From IMG/VR virus record IMGVR_UViG_3300031566_000016, positions 1-64,000 of that record: a stretch of 64,000 nt of DNA; one strand, written 5' to 3'. This document shows positions 1 through 42,297 of the stretch, piece by piece. Numbering within the stretch: position 1 is the first letter of the stretch; each line of letters begins with the position of its first letter. Made by a program: the position numbers and the translations under genes. The notes under the pieces are model-generated. The model was not told where the DNA came from. It did not search any database and was given only the letters and a program-made list of their open reading frames with translations. This stretch comes from a virus.

Positions 1-210
1 GTGGCTGCAGTACGCCCCATTCGCCGGGCAGTCGCACGTCCACTTCTGCTTCTTCACCCACCAGCGCACCGTGTACTCGCCGGTCGCGCCCTGCACCTTC
101 CAGGTGGGCCAGTCGCCGTGATACTTGCGGACGCCACAGGCCGCCACGATCTCGGCGGCCTTGGATTCGACGGCGGGGGAGAATGTGGTCTCTGCTGCCA
201 CGCTAATCAC
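1..210 (-). CDS. SWIM zinc-finger protein (runs off window edge)
   Basis: Manual translation from GTG at 210: ...KVQGATGEYTVRW...WTCDCPANGAYCSH, a CxC-x5-CxH SWIM motif. Not in the ORF track because it is truncated. Confidence 0.65.
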   Translation of the reverse strand, partial: MISVAAETTFSPAVESKAAEIVAACGVRKYHGDWPTWKVQGATGEYTVRWWVKKQKWTCDCPANGAYCSH

Positions 211-422
211 CCATCCCCGTGTCTACTTGCTAAGGCACCGACCTCGGATAAATCCCCGGGCCCCGACTCTTGTCCGTACTCCACATATTCCATGGATTTG
301 TGCTTTGGTTTGCCGCAGATACTGCAACGACCAACGCCCGGACGGATTGAGAACGACTTGCACTCCAGGCAGAATGCCCGCGTTTGCGTGCGAGTGCTCG
401 GTTTCGCGCCCATTGCATCCAC
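207..422 (-). CDS. small Zn-ribbon protein
   Basis: CLEC...CSICG; overlaps the next start by 4 nt. Confidence 0.5.
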   Translation of the reverse strand: MDAMGAKPSTRTQTRAFCLECKSFSIRPGVGRCSICGKPKHKSMEYVEYGQESGPGDLSEVGALASRHGDG

Positions 423-536
423 CTATGCCTTCTTCGGGATCAATGCTGCCAGCAGAAACAGCACCCCGGCGCCGCTCAGAACACCCATGATGTAGCCGGC
501 CCAGAAGGGCACGACGTGCCAGCCTTGCTCGATCAT
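423..536 (-). CDS. small single-TM peptide (37 aa)
   Basis: Manual translation MIEQGWHVVPFWAGYIMGVLSGAGVLFLLAALIPKKA, preceded by AAGGAG. Confidence 0.45.
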   Translation of the reverse strand: MIEQGWHVVPFWAGYIMGVLSGAGVLFLLAALIPKKA

Positions 537-549
537 CTCAGTCTCCTTG

Positions 550-729
550 TCATCTCTTCTCCCCCATGCCCGTGCATACCCGCTGCCCTCGCAGCATCGC
601 CCAGTGGCAGACCCCGCAGCCGGCGCACGTGGCCCGCGTCAGCCCGTTGCCGGGGTACGGCACCTGCACGTCCTTCCCGCAGGTGCACCGCAGGGTCAGC
701 TTCGCATTCGACGGCGGCGGCGTCCGCAT
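550..729 (-). CDS. small Cys-rich (Zn-finger-like) protein, 59 aa
   Basis: MRTPPPSNAKLTLRCTCGK...TCAGCGVCH...; GAGGTG RBS upstream. Confidence 0.5.
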   Translation of the reverse strand: MRTPPPSNAKLTLRCTCGKDVQVPYPGNGLTRATCAGCGVCHWAMLRGQRVCTGMGEKR

Positions 730-752
730 GGCTCACCTCTGTTGGCTTTCTG

Positions 753-1200
753 GAGGGGCCGGGCGTCTCCTTGTCCGGCACCCGGCCCCTCGTGGGATGG
801 TGCTGCGCACGACAACTTCATTGCCCTGCCCCTGGGGTAAGCGTTCAATGTTCCGCCTCCGGCGTCTGCGGTTTGGTGGTCTTCCTGCGTTTGCCCAAGG
901 GGCAGGGCTGTCATTGCGGAGAGCCGAGGCCTGCTTGATACCCAGTCCAACTTACTCAGGGGAGCGACCCCGTCCTAGAGGTTCCCATAGGGCGTAAAGT
1001 TGCTGCGGTGCCTTGGTACGCTCTCTACTCTGAGCGCCTGTACTCCCCAGCGGGCGGTCTGCCAAACCGCTCTCCGCAATCATCATGCCGCCGGGTAACC
1101 GTCCAGTCCACTCTGACGGGAATGCTGTCGTGGCCCCGGCGGCAAACCTGTCGTCTCAAGCTGCGCTACTCATCGCCCCCGGCACGTCGCGCACTCGACA
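753..1200 (-). ncRNA. array of ~5 abutting stem-closed structured RNA domains (array 1)
   Basis: Perfect inverted repeats 753-763/781-791 (11 bp), 823-833/898-908 (11 bp), 913-924/1069-1080 (12 bp), 1086-1095/1135-1144 (10 bp), and a weaker pair at 1149-1153/1196-1200. No credible ORF here. Confidence 0.55.
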
Positions 1201-1201
1201 A

Positions 1202-1897
1202 CTACGCCTTCTCCGCGCCGGTCTCCGCCATGATCTTCGCCAGTTGCTCCCGCGCCGTCAGCGTGGCATTGTCAGCATCCAACTTCAATGCGATGGCCTC
1301 CTTGATCTGCAGCGCCACCGACCATGCATTGTCAGCCGTCTGCATCGCCGCGGCCAGTTCGGCCGCGTCAACTCCGGTGATCGGCTCGGCCACCACCTCG
1401 ACCACACGGTTCGCGATCAACAGGTTTCGGCACATGGCCGCCACGGACTTCTCCAGGAACTCCAGCGCGGCGGCGAAGTCAGCGATGTTCGGCTTGAGCT
1501 GGACCGCCACGATCAGGGCGATTTCCAGCTTCGCGATGCTGTGCCACTTCTCGTTCGACCGGTACTGGTCCGGGACCAGTAGCTCGGTGATCTCCAGTTT
1601 GAAGTTGTACTTCTGCTCGGTCAGTTCCGGCTGGCCTTCCTCGTGGTCGCAGACGGGTACCAGCCCATTGGGGAACCCGGCTTTCGTCAACGTGTCTTGG
1701 GCCACCATCGCGGCCCCCAACATGAGCCGGGAGAGCGGCCCCGCCAATCCCTCCAGCGTCAGGTCAATGCGCGTCTGCACGTCCTTGTCGCCGTCCTCTT
1801 TGACGCGCCCCAGCACCAGTTCCGTCGCGAAGTCCGCTGTCTGGTAGCTGGGGTTCACGGCCATCTTCAGATACATCGTTCCCATGTCGTCACTCAC
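1202..1897 (-). CDS. hypothetical phage protein
   Basis: Long ORF with GAGG RBS and normal composition; no motif recognised. Confidence 0.7.
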   Translation of the reverse strand: MSDDMGTMYLKMAVNPSYQTADFATELVLGRVKEDGDKDVQTRIDLTLEGLAGPLSRLMLGAAMVAQDTLTKAGFPNGLVPVCDHEEGQPELTEQKYNFKLEITELLVPDQYRSNEKWHSIAKLEIALIVAVQLKPNIADFAAALEFLEKSVAAMCRNLLIANRVVEVVAEPITGVDAAELAAAMQTADNAWSVALQIKEAIALKLDADNATLTAREQLAKIMAETGAEKA

Positions 1898-2348
1898 CTC
1901 TCTGGTTGCACTGCTCACACTCGCAGAGCGGGTCGTCCGGGATGTGCCTCGGCGACATCATCGCCCAGCACTGCCGCCCCAACTCCGTCGTCTCGTCGCG
2001 CACCACCTGCGGCTTCACGTCCGCCCCCACCGTGCCGATCTTGCGGATGCTCATTGGGTCCTTGAACTCGATCATGAAGTCTGTGTCGGCTGCGACGAAC
2101 AGGGCACGAGCTTGTCCCCTGGTGTGCGCGATCACAACGTCACAGACCCGAGCGTACTCAGGGGGATCATAGGAGCCCGACCCGCGCCATGCTTCGCCAT
2201 CACCAGCGTCGCAGTAGTACACGTTCATGGTCTGGCCCCCGTCCCAGCCCTCGGCGTGGGCGCGCTCCGTCCGCGCCGCCCGCGCCTCCTCCCGCGCCGC
2301 CACCTCCCGCGCCTCCGCCTGTATCGGCAAGCCCCAGTTGGTGCTCAT
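1890..2348 (-). CDS. hypothetical phage protein
   Basis: ORF coupled to its neighbours; C-terminal CECEQC. Confidence 0.6.
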   Translation of the reverse strand: MSTNWGLPIQAEAREVAAREEARAARTERAHAEGWDGGQTMNVYYCDAGDGEAWRGSGSYDPPEYARVCDVVIAHTRGQARALFVAADTDFMIEFKDPMSIRKIGTVGADVKPQVVRDETTELGRQCWAMMSPRHIPDDPLCECEQCNQRGE

Positions 2349-2737
2349 ATCCTTGGCTCCCGACTTCCCAGCCCGGCCAGGATGTGTTCGAGGTCTGCCG
2401 CGAGGCGCGTGAACGCATAGGTCGTCTCATAGAGAAGCTCCCCCAGTTCTACATCGTCCTGCACATCAGACCAGTCCATTGTCAGCGTCTCTACAATTTC
2501 GCGCTCATCGTCCCGCAGGACGCACTTCACCGTGTAGACCCGCTGCTGCGTTGGCTTCGCTCGATAGGTCAACTTAGCATACGGAAAGCGCCCTCGCACG
2601 ACGACGAGACACATTTTGATGATGGCCGAGGGCGTCTTGTCCACCACCGCCTGCAAGTCTTCGCGGGAGCAGTGGCCGGCGATGTCAGCAAGCATCTGGT
2701 CGCCGCGCTCTTTCGTGAACTCCGGGTGGTCGCTCAC
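2345..2737 (-). CDS. hypothetical phage protein
   Basis: GTGA-coupled to the upstream gene; start reassigned to GTG 2737. Confidence 0.55.
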   Translation of the reverse strand: MSDHPEFTKERGDQMLADIAGHCSREDLQAVVDKTPSAIIKMCLVVVRGRFPYAKLTYRAKPTQQRVYTVKCVLRDDEREIVETLTMDWSDVQDDVELGELLYETTYAFTRLAADLEHILAGLGSREPRI

Positions 2738-2970
2738 GGCTCCACGCTTCCTCCAACGATCTTCAGGCAGCGACGGCATACGGGCAGCGCGGCGATCTTC
2801 TCCATCGGCATCGTCGCGGTATCCACGACCACCTGCATCATCCCACAAGCCGTGTGCCCCATATACCGCGTTCCCTCTGGTAGAAGGTGGCGCTTTGCCA
2901 TGGTGCGCTTCTGCCCAGACGACCGGATCACGTAGATCATCCATCCAGCCACAGTTCCTCTGTCGCTCAC
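2734..2970 (-). CDS. small His/Cys (Zn-binding) protein
   Basis: RH...TACG...CRRC; coupled to neighbours. Confidence 0.5.
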   Translation of the reverse strand: MSDRGTVAGWMIYVIRSSGQKRTMAKRHLLPEGTRYMGHTACGMMQVVVDTATMPMEKIAALPVCRRCLKIVGGSVEP

Positions 2971-3116
2971 GGCTCCCGCTCCTTCCACTGGCGCAGCCAG
3001 CGCCGCTCCCGCCGGATGTCCCGCACCAGCAGCACCGCGCAGACCACGATCACCAGCGCGAAGAAGCCGAGCACGATGTCATTGACCAGCGCCACCGGCG
3101 TCATGCTCTCGGCCAT
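2967..3116 (-). CDS. small membrane protein
   Basis: GGAGG RBS; MAESMTPVALVNDIVLGFFALVIVVCAVLLVRD has one TM segment. Confidence 0.55.
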   Translation of the reverse strand: MAESMTPVALVNDIVLGFFALVIVVCAVLLVRDIRRERRWLRQWKEREP

Positions 3117-3142
3117 CTCAGTCCTCCGTTTGGATGTAGGGG

Positions 3143-3536
3143 GCCGCCGGGCCGATCTCGGCGCAGAAGGAGGGCACCCCTGCGCTACGACCCGGCGGCT
3201 GCGACTTGAGAGACGCGGACTCTGCGGGACGCGCCTCCCAAAAAGTAGCGGAGGGGGCTGCTTAGTGTTCCCCTGCACGCTTCGCAGGGCGGGTAGCACA
3301 GCCACAATCTCCGGCCTGTCCTCTCCCGGCGTCCCGGTCAAGCAAGGCCCTCCGCAAAACTACTGGTGTGCCGGCCCTCCTATCCCAGGGAGCGACTTGT
3401 CGGAGGCCCTTTCTCTCAGGTCTGCTCTGAGGGAGCCCTTGTGGGTCCGTCACGCGCTGGCGCTTCCTTCGGTGCGGCCGCTCAGACCACGGCCCGCCCT
3501 TCCAGATACCCGGCGCGCTTCTCCACCGACACACCA
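3143..3536 (-). ncRNA. array of 4 abutting stem-closed structured RNA domains (array 2)
   Basis: Stems 3143-3154/3188-3199, 3210-3217/3230-3237, 3248-3255/3348-3355 and 3364-3374/3526-3536. The stem imperfections read as G-U pairs only on the minus strand. Confidence 0.55.
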
Positions 3537-3545
3537 AATCTCAAG

Positions 3546-3989
3546 CTACGCTTCGTCCTTCTCGGTCGCCAACCGCAGCCCTGGCACATCCACCTCAGTC
3601 CGTATCTCCACCAGCACCCCATCCTCGAACACCGCCAGCGTCTCCCGCAATCGCTGCTCCACGTTGTCCCCAATCCGGCCCACGAAGAGCGCTTGTTGCA
3701 CCCCCGCCGCCACCTCCTGGCCCATCTCCAACCCCGCCAGCGCCTCCAGTTGCGCGTTGATGCCCCGCCGCTCCTCATTCACTGCGCGGAGCTGCTCGTC
3801 GATCTGCGCGATGGCGTTGCCGGGGACATTGGGCTGTAGGATGGCCTGCCCGCGCAGTTTCGTCAGCCGATCGCGTTCCTGTAGGAGTTGAGTCTGGGCC
3901 TGCTCCAGCTTCGCCCGCTGGTCGTCCTTGAACTGCTTCGTCACGATCACGCGGATGCCCACTTGCCCGATGAAGGTCAGTTCGTCCAT
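3546..3989 (-). CDS. ylqD: YlqD-family protein
   Basis: N-terminal V-x-IRVIVT, central coiled coil, then LEMGQEV...VGRIGDN...VFEDGVLVEIR, the layout of the YlqD family. Confidence 0.7.
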   Translation of the reverse strand: MDELTFIGQVGIRVIVTKQFKDDQRAKLEQAQTQLLQERDRLTKLRGQAILQPNVPGNAIAQIDEQLRAVNEERRGINAQLEALAGLEMGQEVAAGVQQALFVGRIGDNVEQRLRETLAVFEDGVLVEIRTEVDVPGLRLATEKDEA

Positions 3990-4624
3990 CAAGCATCCTC
4001 CTTCTCGGCGGCGGCCAGCTCCGCCAGTCGCTCCGCGTATTCGTCTATCTCGCCGACCTCCGGGGCCACGGCGTCAGCCGCCGGCGCAGCAGCCGGCGCC
4101 ACCAGATCCTCCACCAGCCGGTCGCTTGCCGCATCCGACCACGGGGCCGGGTACAGGTCAGGGAACAGGACCCTGTGCGCCGCCAGCCACCCGCGACATG
4201 CCTCCAGGGTATGCACAGACCGCGCCTCGCCCCGGTCGCATTTGTCCACAAAGTCCTGCATGATGAGTTGAGCACCGCGGAGCGCAGACATGCCAACGGC
4301 CGCGGGGTCGAGGATGCCGCGTTCCTTTCCGAACGGGTACACGTCCGCCCCCTCGTGGACCGCCATCGCCGGGCACGGCCCCACCGGCCGCGCCCCCTCC
4401 GCGTCCGCCAACACCGCCGCCAACTCCTCCCGCCGCCCCGCCGCCCGAGGCTCGCCGCGCTCCCGCGCCAGCGCCGCCTGCGCGTCCTCTAAGCCCCGCC
4501 GCCATGCGTCGGCCTCCGTCTGGGCATCGGCCACCTTCGAGGCCGCCAGCAGCGCAGCGATCACGATGCCCACCCCGCCCCCCAGGATGAACGCCACGAC
4601 TACCCACGCTGCTGCTACGTGCAT
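3989..4624 (-). CDS. membrane-anchored hypothetical protein
   Basis: N-terminal TM (WVVVAFILGGGVGIVIAALLAA) followed by a helical region. Confidence 0.6.
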   Translation of the reverse strand: MHVAAAWVVVAFILGGGVGIVIAALLAASKVADAQTEADAWRRGLEDAQAALARERGEPRAAGRREELAAVLADAEGARPVGPCPAMAVHEGADVYPFGKERGILDPAAVGMSALRGAQLIMQDFVDKCDRGEARSVHTLEACRGWLAAHRVLFPDLYPAPWSDAASDRLVEDLVAPAAAPAADAVAPEVGEIDEYAERLAELAAAEKEDA

Positions 4625-4625
4625 G

Positions 4626-4841
4626 TCACTTGTCCTCCTGGGTGGATGATGCGGCCAGCGCCTGCGCCCGCTCGTCGTCCAGTCTCGCTTGTTCGAGGAT
4701 CAGGTTCAGGAGGTTATTCGCCGAGCGACCCTGGCTGGACGCATTGGACTCCAGCCACTCCATGCTGGCGCGGGGGATACGAAAGCTGCGTAGTTTGGTG
4801 CGAGGCTCGGGTGGTGTAGGAGTATCGGCGCGCTTTGTCAT
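4626..4841 (-). CDS. Arc/CopG-like ribbon-helix-helix regulator
   Basis: LRSFRIPRASMEWLESNASSQGRSANNLLNLILEQA fits the RHH pattern; first gene after a promoter. Confidence 0.7.
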   Translation of the reverse strand: MTKRADTPTPPEPRTKLRSFRIPRASMEWLESNASSQGRSANNLLNLILEQARLDDERAQALAASSTQEDK

Positions 4842-4868
4842 CTGGGGTCTGCCCTCCTGTGATGACAA

Positions 4869-4897
4869 AGTATAGCGAGTGTTTCGACGTGTGTCAA
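4869..4897 (-). promoter_or_regulatory. sigma70-type promoter TTGACA-17-TATACT
   Basis: Near-consensus boxes. Upstream palindrome TTGTGT-N3-ACACAA (4907-4921) is a candidate operator. Confidence 0.8.
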
Positions 4898-5033
4898 CGT
4901 AATTCTTTGTGTACAACACAAGGAAGCTCCCGCAGACGCCTGAAAGCTCCCCGGCACCCCGAGTGGAGGGGGGTAGCCCCACTTTTCTCCAGCGCAGGCC
5001 ACAGGCACGTCTGTACCCATGCAGGAGAGGCAG

Positions 5034-5070
5034 AACAGAGAACGCCGCCCCGGCATAGGCCAGGGCGGCG
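5034..5070 (-). terminator. intrinsic terminator ending the late/accessory operon
   Basis: CGCCGCCC/GGGCGGCG stem (5043-5070) followed on the minus strand by TTCTCTGTT. Confidence 0.5.
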
Positions 5071-5097
5071 CAGATACATCATTCCGTGCGGCAAGCC

Positions 5098-5301
5098 TCA
5101 GAGCTTGAGGTCTTCCTTCACCTGCGCGGCGGTCGGCGTCTGGTGTTGGCACACGAAGCGCAGTGCCTTCCACACGAGGTCGAACGCCTTCTGGAAGGGC
5201 GTGATCTTGTACCCGGCACTGAGGGCCAGAGTGCAGTACAGCAGGGCGTCCTTCTTCTGGCGGTTGAGGTAGGACAGCATCATCGTTGTGGCCAGGCTCA
5301 T
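5098..5301 (-). CDS. hypothetical protein
   Basis: Short ORF at the operon end. Confidence 0.5.
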   Translation of the reverse strand: MSLATTMMLSYLNRQKKDALLYCTLALSAGYKITPFQKAFDLVWKALRFVCQHQTPTAAQVKEDLKL

Positions 5302-5307
5302 TTCAGG

Positions 5308-5625
5308 TCACCCTTCCTCTGGGTCGAGTGGAACGGATGGTGCGACTGCATAGGTCTTGCTCAGGATCTCCCACGGGCCGACAGCGAAGACCATCGCCAC
5401 TGCCCATTGCATCCAGAACTGCGGCGTGGTGCCGGTCACCACGATCGTCGTCGCGGCGGTAGCAGCGGCGACGGCCAGCAGCTTCGTGACCTTCGCGGCG
5501 GCGGTGTCGCTCAGCGGCCTGCCGGACCAATGGCATATCGCCTTGATGAGCGCGAACACAGCCATGACCACGAGTCCCTGAAGTGCGGCCTGCTGATCGG
5601 GCGGCAGTTGCGTATACCAGTCCAT
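5308..5625 (-). CDS. holin-like membrane protein
   Basis: 105 aa, 2-3 hydrophobic segments, AAAGGAG RBS, end of the late operon. Confidence 0.5.
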   Translation of the reverse strand: MDWYTQLPPDQQAALQGLVVMAVFALIKAICHWSGRPLSDTAAAKVTKLLAVAAATAATTIVVTGTTPQFWMQWAVAMVFAVGPWEILSKTYAVAPSVPLDPEEG

Positions 5626-40788: not shown

Positions 40789-42297
40789 TCACTGACCCGA
40801 GGTCTCCGCGAGGGGTAGTTGCATGTTCCCGGCCGTTCCTGCAGCCGCTTCTGGCACCGGCGGCGCGGGAGCTACGGATGCTTCTGACTGCGGCCCCACG
40901 GCCTCGCCCGGGCGCACCCCCACAGTCTCCTGCCACTCGGCCTGCAGGTCCGGCGGCACCCCACCCGGCTGGTCCTTGTACCAGACCTTCAGCGCCCGCG
41001 TGTACCGCTCCAGGTCGCGCACCGCCACCTTGCCGTGCTCCAGCGATGGAAGACGCTTCGCCGTCGAGCCGTTCATCCGGGCAAAGTCCGGGATGGCCTC
41101 TGCGTTGAAGCGATGGCAGATCCAATCGGCGATGCCCTCCAGCAGGACCTCTCCGAACCACTGCGATGCCACCTGCGACAGCGCATTGCTGCCGCCAGAC
41201 CCGCCCTGCGAGAGCACCACAAAGCCGGTGCCGAACACGTCATGAATCGCCTCGGTCTGTCGCTGAATGTGCATCTCGAACGGCACCGAGGCGTCGCCCA
41301 TGTCGAAGGTCTTGAGTTCCCAGCCGTAGGGAATGTAGCCGCCGCTGTCCTGGGCCGTTGCGATGCTCCGCATGAAAGCGACCACCGCGTCGGCCTGATC
41401 CTGGACGATCTCCTCGCCCTCCGGTGCCACGGCGTAGGGCACACCACAAGCCTGCCGCTTGATGCGCACCCCGGCGTACCGCTGGTAGTCGTCCTTCTGG
41501 CAGTAGGCCCGGTAAGCCCGACGCAGACCGCCGAGACCCTCGGGGTCCCCGCCGTCGTCACACCACGACCACAGCAGGATCTCGTCACGGGCGTAGTAGA
41601 CGTAGCGCGGCTCCATCGTGCGCGGGTCCATGCCGTAGGCGACAAGCCCGATCGCATGGCCTTCGGCGTCGAAGTCCCACTGCCAGACCGTGCTCGGTAG
41701 ACGCGGCGCCAGCTCGTGCCAGCCGGTGAACGACTTGCCGCCGGTCTCCATAGAGCCGGTCTTCTGGTACTGCCAGGCGAAACCCTCGAAGAATGCCAGT
41801 GATCCCTCCCGGATCGCGGATGCGAAGGGTCGCGGCGGGACGTTGCTGCCGACCTGATACTGGCCGAGGCCGTCATGGATGTTCCACTCCAGCAACTCGG
41901 CAAGTTCACCGTCTTCGCCGGGCAATACGTGGAAGTCCGTCATGGAGAGCGGGAGGGTGATGAGCAACTCGGAGATGCCAACGGCCGGCTCGCTGCGGCG
42001 CATCTCATTGAACTTGGTCATGCGCGATTGGATGTCGGAGAGTTCGGAGTTGTACTCCTCGGTGACGCGGCCCACGCTGACGCCGAGGCCGGTGTTGCCA
42101 GCGGCCGAGGACTCGGCCGGGATGAGCATGGGGTTCGGGTTGGCGTTGTAGGCGTTGGCGAGGAGTTCCCGGCCGGACTCGGTCTGACGGAGTCCGGGGA
42201 TGCTCTCGGGCATGACGACGTAGCGGGGTCCGGGGGCGGACTGGAGCTGGCGGATGCCGAGGCCGCGCTTGATCTGCTGGAGGAAGGAGTCGGCCAT
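40789..42297 (-). CDS. portal protein (Mu gp29/DUF935-like)
   Basis: Follows the terminase; FFEGFA, GDPEGLGGLRRAY, GGSNALSQV, FNAEAIP. Confidence 0.8.
   Translation of the reverse strand: MADSFLQQIKRGLGIRQLQSAPGPRYVVMPESIPGLRQTESGRELLANAYNANPNPMLIPAESSAAGNTGLGVSVGRVTEEYNSELSDIQSRMTKFNEMRRSEPAVGISELLITLPLSMTDFHVLPGEDGELAELLEWNIHDGLGQYQVGSNVPPRPFASAIREGSLAFFEGFAWQYQKTGSMETGGKSFTGWHELAPRLPSTVWQWDFDAEGHAIGLVAYGMDPRTMEPRYVYYARDEILLWSWCDDGGDPEGLGGLRRAYRAYCQKDDYQRYAGVRIKRQACGVPYAVAPEGEEIVQDQADAVVAFMRSIATAQDSGGYIPYGWELKTFDMGDASVPFEMHIQRQTEAIHDVFGTGFVVLSQGGSGGSNALSQVASQWFGEVLLEGIADWICHRFNAEAIPDFARMNGSTAKRLPSLEHGKVAVRDLERYTRALKVWYKDQPGGVPPDLQAEWQETVGVRPGEAVGPQSEASVAPAPPVPEAAAGTAGNMQLPLAETSGQ

Follow-up and report, generated by a model that had tools for sequence, protein, structure and literature searches.

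A non-coding intercistronic spacer downstream of a ylqD-family gene in an uncultured soil phage, with two compact, possibly cis-acting hairpins

Results

Genes and signals around the spacer

The window analysed here is the stretch of bases 1-64000 of the linear 75,153-bp IMG/VR record IMGVR_UViG_3300031566_000016, which derives from an uncultured soil phage (65% G+C; CheckV completeness 77%). A sequencing-run search found the phage in three soil DNA metagenomes and listed no RNA run with it. Of the genes between approximately 51 kb and base 1, nearly all are on the minus strand. On this strand a 429-nt gap follows the ylqD-family gene and ends at a gene for a 49-aa membrane protein (Table 1). 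The 49-aa gene is an ORF with high GC3 whose match to PHROG 16606 is weak, and its Shine-Dalgarno sequence, GGAGG, occupies 3127-3123. A second long spacer lies further downstream; following the initial annotation of this DNA we call it array 1 and the 429-nt spacer array 2. In Pfam and PHROG scans all neighbouring genes were orphans.

Scanning 1-5400 for terminators returned them solely at 5071-5042 and 485-460, with no canonical terminator between the 4897 promoter and array 1. Since the promoter is strong and no canonical terminator intervenes, co-transcription of both spacers from 4897 is plausible, as judged from these sequence signals.

Where the Arc-like gene begins, after the -10 box of the 4897 promoter, positions 4833-4870 form a perfect inverted repeat of 10 bp, CTTTGTCATC ... 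GATGACAAAG. The Shine-Dalgarno sequence falls in the loop of this repeat and the start codon in its 3' arm (sliding-window z -3.27, minus strand). We regard the repeat as a candidate, either for an operator bound by the ribbon-helix-helix protein or for a translational hairpin.

Table 1. Features of the operon and its two long spacers. Coordinates are those of the window; z-scores compare folding energies with shuffled sequences.
Feature	Coordinates	Strand	Description
Terminator-like strong hairpin	5071-5042	minus	Ends the preceding unit; the 4897 promoter comes after it
σ70-like promoter, TTGACA-17-TATACT	4869-4897	minus	Matches 11 of 12 consensus positions; followed by the Arc-like ribbon-helix-helix gene
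Arc/CopG-like ribbon-helix-helix gene	4841-4626	minus	PHROG 6506, E 8e-6
211-aa gene		minus	Hydrophobic N-terminal stretch, taken as a membrane protein (translation read by eye); between the Arc-like gene and ylqD
ylqD-family gene	3546-3992	minus	Pfam PF11068 YlqD, E 1e-13, profile positions 3-131 of 131; directly upstream of the spacer
Intercistronic spacer (array 2), 429 nt	3117-3545	minus	From the ylqD stop codon to the start codon of the next gene
175-nt predicted domain, weakly supported	3363-3537	minus	13-bp closing helix with three G-U pairs
119-nt multibranch predicted domain, weakly supported	3237-3355	minus	Closed by GCGGAGGG/CCCUCCGC
38-nt hairpin	3205-3242	minus	dG -18.4 kcal/mol; z -3.13 minus, -2.19 plus
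57-nt hairpin	3143-3199	minus	dG -40.8 kcal/mol; z -3.27 minus, -2.50 plus
Small single-pass membrane-protein gene, 49 aa (MAESMTP...)	2967-3116	minus	Directly downstream of the spacer
Five small orphan genes	3116-1202	minus	Between the two long spacers
Second spacer (array 1)	730-1201	minus	3' of the five orphan genes; more small genes beyond
57-nt hairpin frame, second copy	1087-1143	minus	dG -31.7 kcal/mol; z -3.77 minus, -2.58 plus
168-nt domain of array 1	913-1080	minus	12-bp closing helix AUUGCGGAGAGC/GCUCUCCGCAAU

The spacer is non-coding

We found that G+C content by codon position was flat in 3100-3550 and in 750-1200, while every flanking gene was strongly marked by GC3. Period-3 power was 0.04 for 3120-3545 and 0.2 to 1.9 in 99-nt windows (null mean 1), compared with 4 to 16 in genes. 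Since periodicity was missing even from the 99-nt windows, not even a short in-phase relic of a gene broken by frameshifts survives in the spacer. All ORFs across it are Arg/Pro/Ser-rich read-throughs, and the 91-aa ORF among them matched no Pfam or PHROG family. The spacer is non-coding, as the initial annotation had proposed: codon-position G+C, period-3 power and the family scans together rule out a coding or pseudogene reading, and no credible ORF was found. Both spacers rank among the longest non-periodic stretches of the 75-kb contig. Past the end of the window, positions 69681-71080 of the contig form another stretch of approximately 1.4 kb without codon periodicity.

Non-coding DNA of this kind could simply lack a function. 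It would then have decayed, or come in from elsewhere, in an accessory region that evolves fast; its helices would be those expected of any sequence at 65% G+C, and the 57-nt hairpin frame that it shares with array 1 (see below) would be a coincidence or the remnant of a small duplication. We consider this a real possibility, though an unlikely one. The absence of leftover codon periodicity in 99-nt windows argues against a recent pseudogene, and phage genomes seldom retain two gaps of more than 400 nt within one operon.

The region is lineage-specific and matches no known RNA family

Relatives carrying the region were absent from GenBank phages (blastn), from IMG/VR (six protein queries) and from JGI metagenome contigs and GTDB genome contigs. 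A HMMER search of 1.84 billion representative proteins likewise gave no YlqD relative with the region, the next YlqD relative being 31% identical. Among 5.8 billion proteins the flanking proteins had one relative each, at 83% identity: that of YlqD lies on a 637-nt ENA contig and that of the 231-aa protein on a 1136-nt JGI contig. In the three soil metagenomes the pieces compared were identical and the spacer was without variants. We found one relative of the phage itself in IMG/VR, the 22-kb contig IMGVR_UViG_3300029288_000737, whose portal protein is 90% identical to the product of 40789-42297; it does not include the spacer region and could serve for comparison of the structural region and spacers. 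This lineage-specificity, with one relative for each flanking protein and orphans all around, fits a functionless spacer. The YlqD-family protein of the phage, encoded in an accessory operon, is itself highly divergent.

We compared the DNA with known RNA families. With Rfam 15 (4227 models) at the gathering score, nothing in the 64 kb matched, including tRNA, tmRNA, riboswitches, ribozymes, group I/II introns, GOLLD and ROOL. Relaxing the threshold to E up to 10 across 500-5100 gave four chance-level matches (best E 1.4), far below gathering, none of which fell in 3117-3545. ARAGORN found no tRNA or tmRNA in the 64-kb stretch. The initial annotation had pointed to a 7-bp stem plus A-CCA at the end of the largest domain; a tRNA-like or tmRNA-like element would have a cloverleaf or tmRNA architecture in which NCCA is unpaired beyond the acceptor stem. 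In both the MFE and the centroid fold, however, these bases are paired, as they form the 3' arm of the helix of 13 bp that closes the domain. Neither ARAGORN nor Rfam detected a tRNA-like element.

As a whole the spacer folds like shuffled sequence

Array 2 had been described as four abutting, stem-closed RNA domains. All of the helices named in that description are present when the minus strand is folded, in the MFE as well as the centroid structure, namely those of 13 bp (3363-3537), 8 bp (3248-3355) and 12-13 bp (3205-3242) and the 57-nt hairpin (3143-3199). The further claim that they form a selected, structured RNA did not withstand comparison with shuffled sequences, since the whole spacer and its windows fold as shuffles do. 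On the minus strand a 426-nt stretch folded to -199.6 kcal/mol, against -192.1 ± 6.3 for dinucleotide shuffles (z -1.20), and the plus strand gave z -0.86. Sliding 100-nt windows ranged from z -2.0 to +1.0, like coding DNA. When G-U pairs were allowed, the minus strand had five helices of at least 10 bp and the plus strand had six, counts that are reached by 27% and 12%, respectively, of genome windows of the same size. Perfect helices of at least 9 bp numbered one in array 2, compared with five in array 1. These whole-spacer z-scores (about -1.2 and -0.9) and a helix count inside the genome distribution are in keeping with an absence of function.

Neither of the larger domains changed this picture when folded alone, although their borders had been picked at helices. 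The 175-nt domain gave z -1.85 on the minus strand and -2.23 on the plus strand, values similar enough that it has no strand preference, and the 119-nt domain gave -1.57 and -0.76. The stem imperfections, which become G-U pairs on the minus strand, had been taken as a mark of selection on RNA. The minus strand is G-rich (153 G, 131 C), and its folding advantage of 11 kcal/mol over the plus strand is almost equalled by the 8.7 kcal/mol seen in shuffles, so that G/U composition explains the strand bias; the plus strand has as many helices with G-U pairs. In DNA of 65% G+C, long "domain-closing" helices with G-U pairs come up by chance on either strand, and without shuffle controls they are therefore no evidence of structured RNA.

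The annotation also placed a run of five uridines after the 119-nt domain. The run is there, at 3238-3234, 3 nt past the multibranch domain and ahead of the 38-nt hairpin; it is not a terminator in our scan, and nowhere in the spacer did we find the arrangement of an intrinsic terminator (a G+C-rich hairpin with a 3-8 nt loop and a U-rich tract within 0-2 nt).

Two compact hairpins exceed shuffled controls

Only the 38-nt and the 57-nt hairpins beat shuffles in the spacer, and both are stronger on the sense strand (Table 1). Each was equalled or exceeded by 1-2 of 200 shuffles, which speaks against a functionless spacer; domain borders were picked at helices, and the hairpin z-scores are therefore inflated. 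The 38-nt hairpin has a 12-bp stem with three G-U pairs, which on the plus strand are A-C mismatches, and the U5 run stands before it, not after it. In the 57-nt hairpin the lower stem of 12 bp is made up of 9 bp (GCCGCCGGG/CCCGGCGGC), a U-G pair and 2 bp; above it are an internal loop, an upper stem of approximately 9 bp and a 6-nt loop.

The 57-nt hairpin ends 15 nt before the Shine-Dalgarno sequence of the 49-aa gene, so that the 3' end of array 2 reads: hairpin 3143-3199, CCCCUACAUCCAAAC, GGAGG. The 3' end of array 1 consists of a 13-bp hairpin (753-791), CAGAAAGCCAACA and GAGGUGA. Thus both spacers have a common layout of a stable G+C hairpin, a 13-15 nt A/C-rich linker, a Shine-Dalgarno sequence and AUG.

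The two spacers share helices without sequence homology

The initial annotation had stated that the 57-nt hairpin closes with the same helix as a domain of array 1. We found this to be exact: the 9-bp helix is identical and the span is 57 nt in both. The copy at 1087-1143 also has the 39-nt interior length of 3143-3199, around an interior that is unrelated (13 of 39 positions identical by eye). In the 75-kb contig the pattern GCCGCCGGG-N39-CCCGGCGGC occurs at 1087-1143 and 3143-3199 only, and across all IMG/VR contigs it has 14 matches. In scans of viral, metagenome and genome contigs for this frame, the matches that we fetched were all unrelated to the phage, and those in viral contigs were mostly within apparent coding sequence, as judged by eye.

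Sharing of a stem is not rare as such; three stem pairs of at least 9 bp with a common 9-mer arm occur in the genome, and at least one occurs in 29% of shuffled genomes. What makes the shared 57-nt helix notable is its equal span and its location in two spacers of one operon, for which we estimate a post hoc p of roughly 0.01, lower when location is counted. A second helix is also similar between the spacers. The helix that closes the 119-nt domain (UUGCGGAGGGC.../...CCCUCCGC) resembles AUUGCGGAGAGC/GCUCUCCGCAAU of array 1, with one compensatory exchange of A-U to G-C. Array 2 has five perfect helices of at least 8 bp, of which two are near-identical to helices in the set of five from array 1; at least two such helices in common with array 1 were seen in only 0.5% of control segments. 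The similarity of the second helix is modest evidence, being post hoc. The 9-bp helix recurs in the second spacer at an equal span (p of about 0.01 or less), and this recurrence and the two shared helices weigh against the spacers being functionless. The pattern fits a view in which helices are the constrained part and interiors drift in two diverged spacers.

Outside the helices we found no similarity beyond chance. The best local alignment of array 1 with array 2 scored 22, compared with 21.2 ± 2.4 for shuffles. The spacers have four 9-mers in common, against a mean of 2.3 in random segment pairs, 22% of which reach four; 7-mers and 8-mers are likewise shared at the random-pair rate. No 14-nt window had 12 matches between the two spacers, and repeats of either spacer elsewhere in the genome were just 11-13-mers with chance E-values. 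Two words that the annotation had singled out in both spacers, GGGAGCGAC (960 and 3388) and GATACCC (937 and 3505), are where it placed them; since word sharing as a whole is at the random-pair rate, their RNA-sense forms, GUCGCUCCC and GGGUAUC, are chance words. The claimed relationship between the two domains of approximately 170 nt failed as well, because they cannot be aligned: MAFFT was uninformative and local alignment stayed at shuffle level. On the alignment, word and window controls we reject sequence homology between the arrays. Chance-level word sharing is again as expected of spacers without function.

Array 1 itself is unusual. Its five perfect inverted repeats of 9-12 bp are the maximum of any contig window (mean 0.42), and it folds with z -4.55 on the plus (antisense) strand and -2.77 on the minus (sense) strand. 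Given this preference for the plus strand, the structure of array 1 is not evidently selected on the mRNA strand, and this weakens the idea of one ncRNA system. The data hint that array 1 is a DNA-level or antisense feature rather than a sense-strand RNA.

These results bear on the model put forward in the initial annotation, in which the two arrays are a two-part family of stable, stem-closed ncRNAs, possibly excised at their closing helices and acting with partners such as YlqD. Consistent with it, two closing helices are common to the spacers, one of them with a compensatory pair, both spacers lie on the sense strand of the operon, and array 1 beats shuffles significantly. In B. subtilis, ylqD belongs to the rimM operon for ribosome maturation (PMC10100781), which makes an RNA-related role conceivable; for YlqD as an RNA partner the literature gives only this operon placement, and a search by sequence returned no solved structure of YlqD. 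Against the model, array 2 folds no better than its shuffles and its strand signal is one of composition; the domains of approximately 170 nt do not align; there is no Rfam, tRNA-like or tmRNA-like feature; and array 1 prefers the antisense strand. We therefore regard the model as very unlikely, and the two arrays are not supported as one ncRNA system.

Comparison with known intercistronic elements

The compact hairpins lie between cistrons and can be compared with elements known from such positions. The RNase III signals of phage T7 (R0.3, R0.5, R1.1 and others) lie between cistrons of the early and late polycistronic mRNAs. They are irregular intercistronic hairpins of approximately two helical turns with an internal loop, several per transcript and next to a ribosome-binding site, and the same features are predicted here. 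The spacer lies between co-oriented genes with a promoter upstream and no terminator between, so that it is predicted to be transcribed, and the 57-nt hairpins of both spacers are predicted to contain 20-21 bp broken by internal loops (21 in 3143-3199, 20 in 1087-1143). For comparison, two helical turns, at 22 bp, make up the idealised RNase III substrate, in which internal loops confine cleavage to one strand; the early polycistronic precursor of T7 carries five RNase III signals (PMC3867540). The T7 sites differ in occupying short gaps, whereas here the hairpin takes up 57 of 429 non-coding bases.

A second comparison is with stem-loops that stabilise mRNAs. Bacterial and phage examples are the ompA 5' hairpin, REP/BIME elements in operons and the T4 C(UUCG)G hairpins. 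Like these, the hairpins found here are very stable, G+C-rich and intercistronic, and they stand 13-15 nt before the ribosome-binding site in both spacers. REP elements differ in that their interiors are conserved and their copies number tens to hundreds, whereas the frame found here has two copies with unrelated interiors. MITEs carry terminal inverted repeats together with a target-site duplication. A REP/BIME or MITE-like repeat was rejected on the grounds of two copies in 75 kb, no duplicated flank, and matches on other contigs that are single and at chance level.

The attC sites of integrons end in an inverse core site and a core site (RYYYAAC ... GTTRRRY), and an integron integrase lies nearby. 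The ends of the 57-nt element read GCCGCCGGG ... CCCGGCGGC and no recombinase gene is adjacent, and we rejected an integron attC identity.

The repeated stem-loops of T4-type phages known as PeSLs (promoter-early stem-loops), which are mobile regulatory cassettes, flank blocks of orphan genes in the plastic part of the genome (PMC2839356), as the 57-nt frames do here. A PeSL combines a strong σ70 promoter with a terminating stem-loop and is conserved over its whole length (PMC2839356), and many near-identical copies exist; the frames described here have only 9+9 bases in common and two copies. No promoter-like or terminator-like site was found in 3117-3545 or 730-1201, and a PeSL cassette was rejected for these reasons, namely the missing sites and two copies that share arms only.

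The flanking position nevertheless suggests another explanation, at the level of DNA: the two 57-bp inverted-repeat elements could be recombination or insertion junctions, used in the shuffling of cassettes, around the 2.0-kb block of five orphans (1144-3142). An identical 9-bp inverted repeat with identical spacing and unrelated interiors does stand at both ends of the block, and perfect Watson-Crick arms are strand-symmetric. Nowhere else in the genome are perfect inverted repeats as dense as in array 1, whose folding is also better on the plus strand, and PeSL repeats, which flank ORFans, mediate modular shuffling (PMC2839356). Against this reading, there are two copies only, and 9-bp arms are too short for homologous exchange; the elements have no accompanying promoter or terminator, unlike PeSLs; their ends show neither an attC core (GTTRRRY) nor a target-site duplication; Pfam and PHROG place no recombinase gene adjacent; and the extension of the stem in array 2 through a U-G pair works just in RNA or on the minus strand. 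We consider module boundaries of this type quite unlikely.

The large non-coding phage RNAs GOLLD and ROOL resemble the spacer in comprising several hundred non-coding bases with predicted multi-helix folds. They differ in that the spacer matches no Rfam model and folds no better than shuffles. Our best reading is that the spacer is a further example of structured intercistronic spacers in phage mRNAs, a type that is already known.

Discussion

We tentatively favour the reading that the spacer is an untranslated intercistronic mRNA segment carrying cis-acting processing or stabiliser hairpins, while holding it with somewhat less than even confidence. Since only two small hairpins beat chance, the spacer looks like an ordinary structured mRNA spacer and not a new RNA machine, and it has no demonstrable identity as a trans-acting RNA. 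Under the reading we favour, a polycistronic mRNA would start at 4897 and carry the Arc-like, membrane-protein and ylqD cistrons, the spacer, the five orphans, the second spacer and further small genes. The two compact hairpins at the 3' end of the spacer would act in cis, either as processing sites for an endonuclease of the RNase III type or as protective 5' or 3' stem-loops, and in either role they may make the downstream cistrons independent of the upstream ones in stability and translation. Folding of the long, G-rich untranslated stretch might limit the loading of Rho, and what is left of the spacer is probably filler under weak constraint. We infer transcription from 4897, cleavage or stabilisation and the role of RNase III. 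The helices, identified in a single sequence, are putative functional elements on which selection may be acting.

Against the processing reading, 429 nt far exceeds what a processing site needs, and the statistic on helix sharing is post hoc. A further consideration concerns the helix itself. RNase III needs no specific helix sequence. Because it is indifferent to sequence, processing alone leaves the identity of the 9-bp helix at both sites unexplained. A more speculative reading, which we hold to be highly improbable, would account for the spacers as a modular RNA family in which conserved closing helices (GCCGCCGGG/CCCGGCGGC; UUGCGGAG.GC/GC.CUCCGC) are excision sites, in the way that helices cut by RNase III free the rRNAs from their precursor, and the variable interiors are freed as stable phage small RNAs, possibly working with the YlqD-family protein.

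Were the hairpins to serve in processing or as stabilisers, the operon would be another phage case of post-transcriptional control of accessory genes, which would be unsurprising and, if true, useful for annotating uncultured soil phages of high G+C. Should common helices around unrelated interiors be confirmed in relatives, a factor that recognises sequence, or a mechanism acting at cassette junctions, would be indicated.
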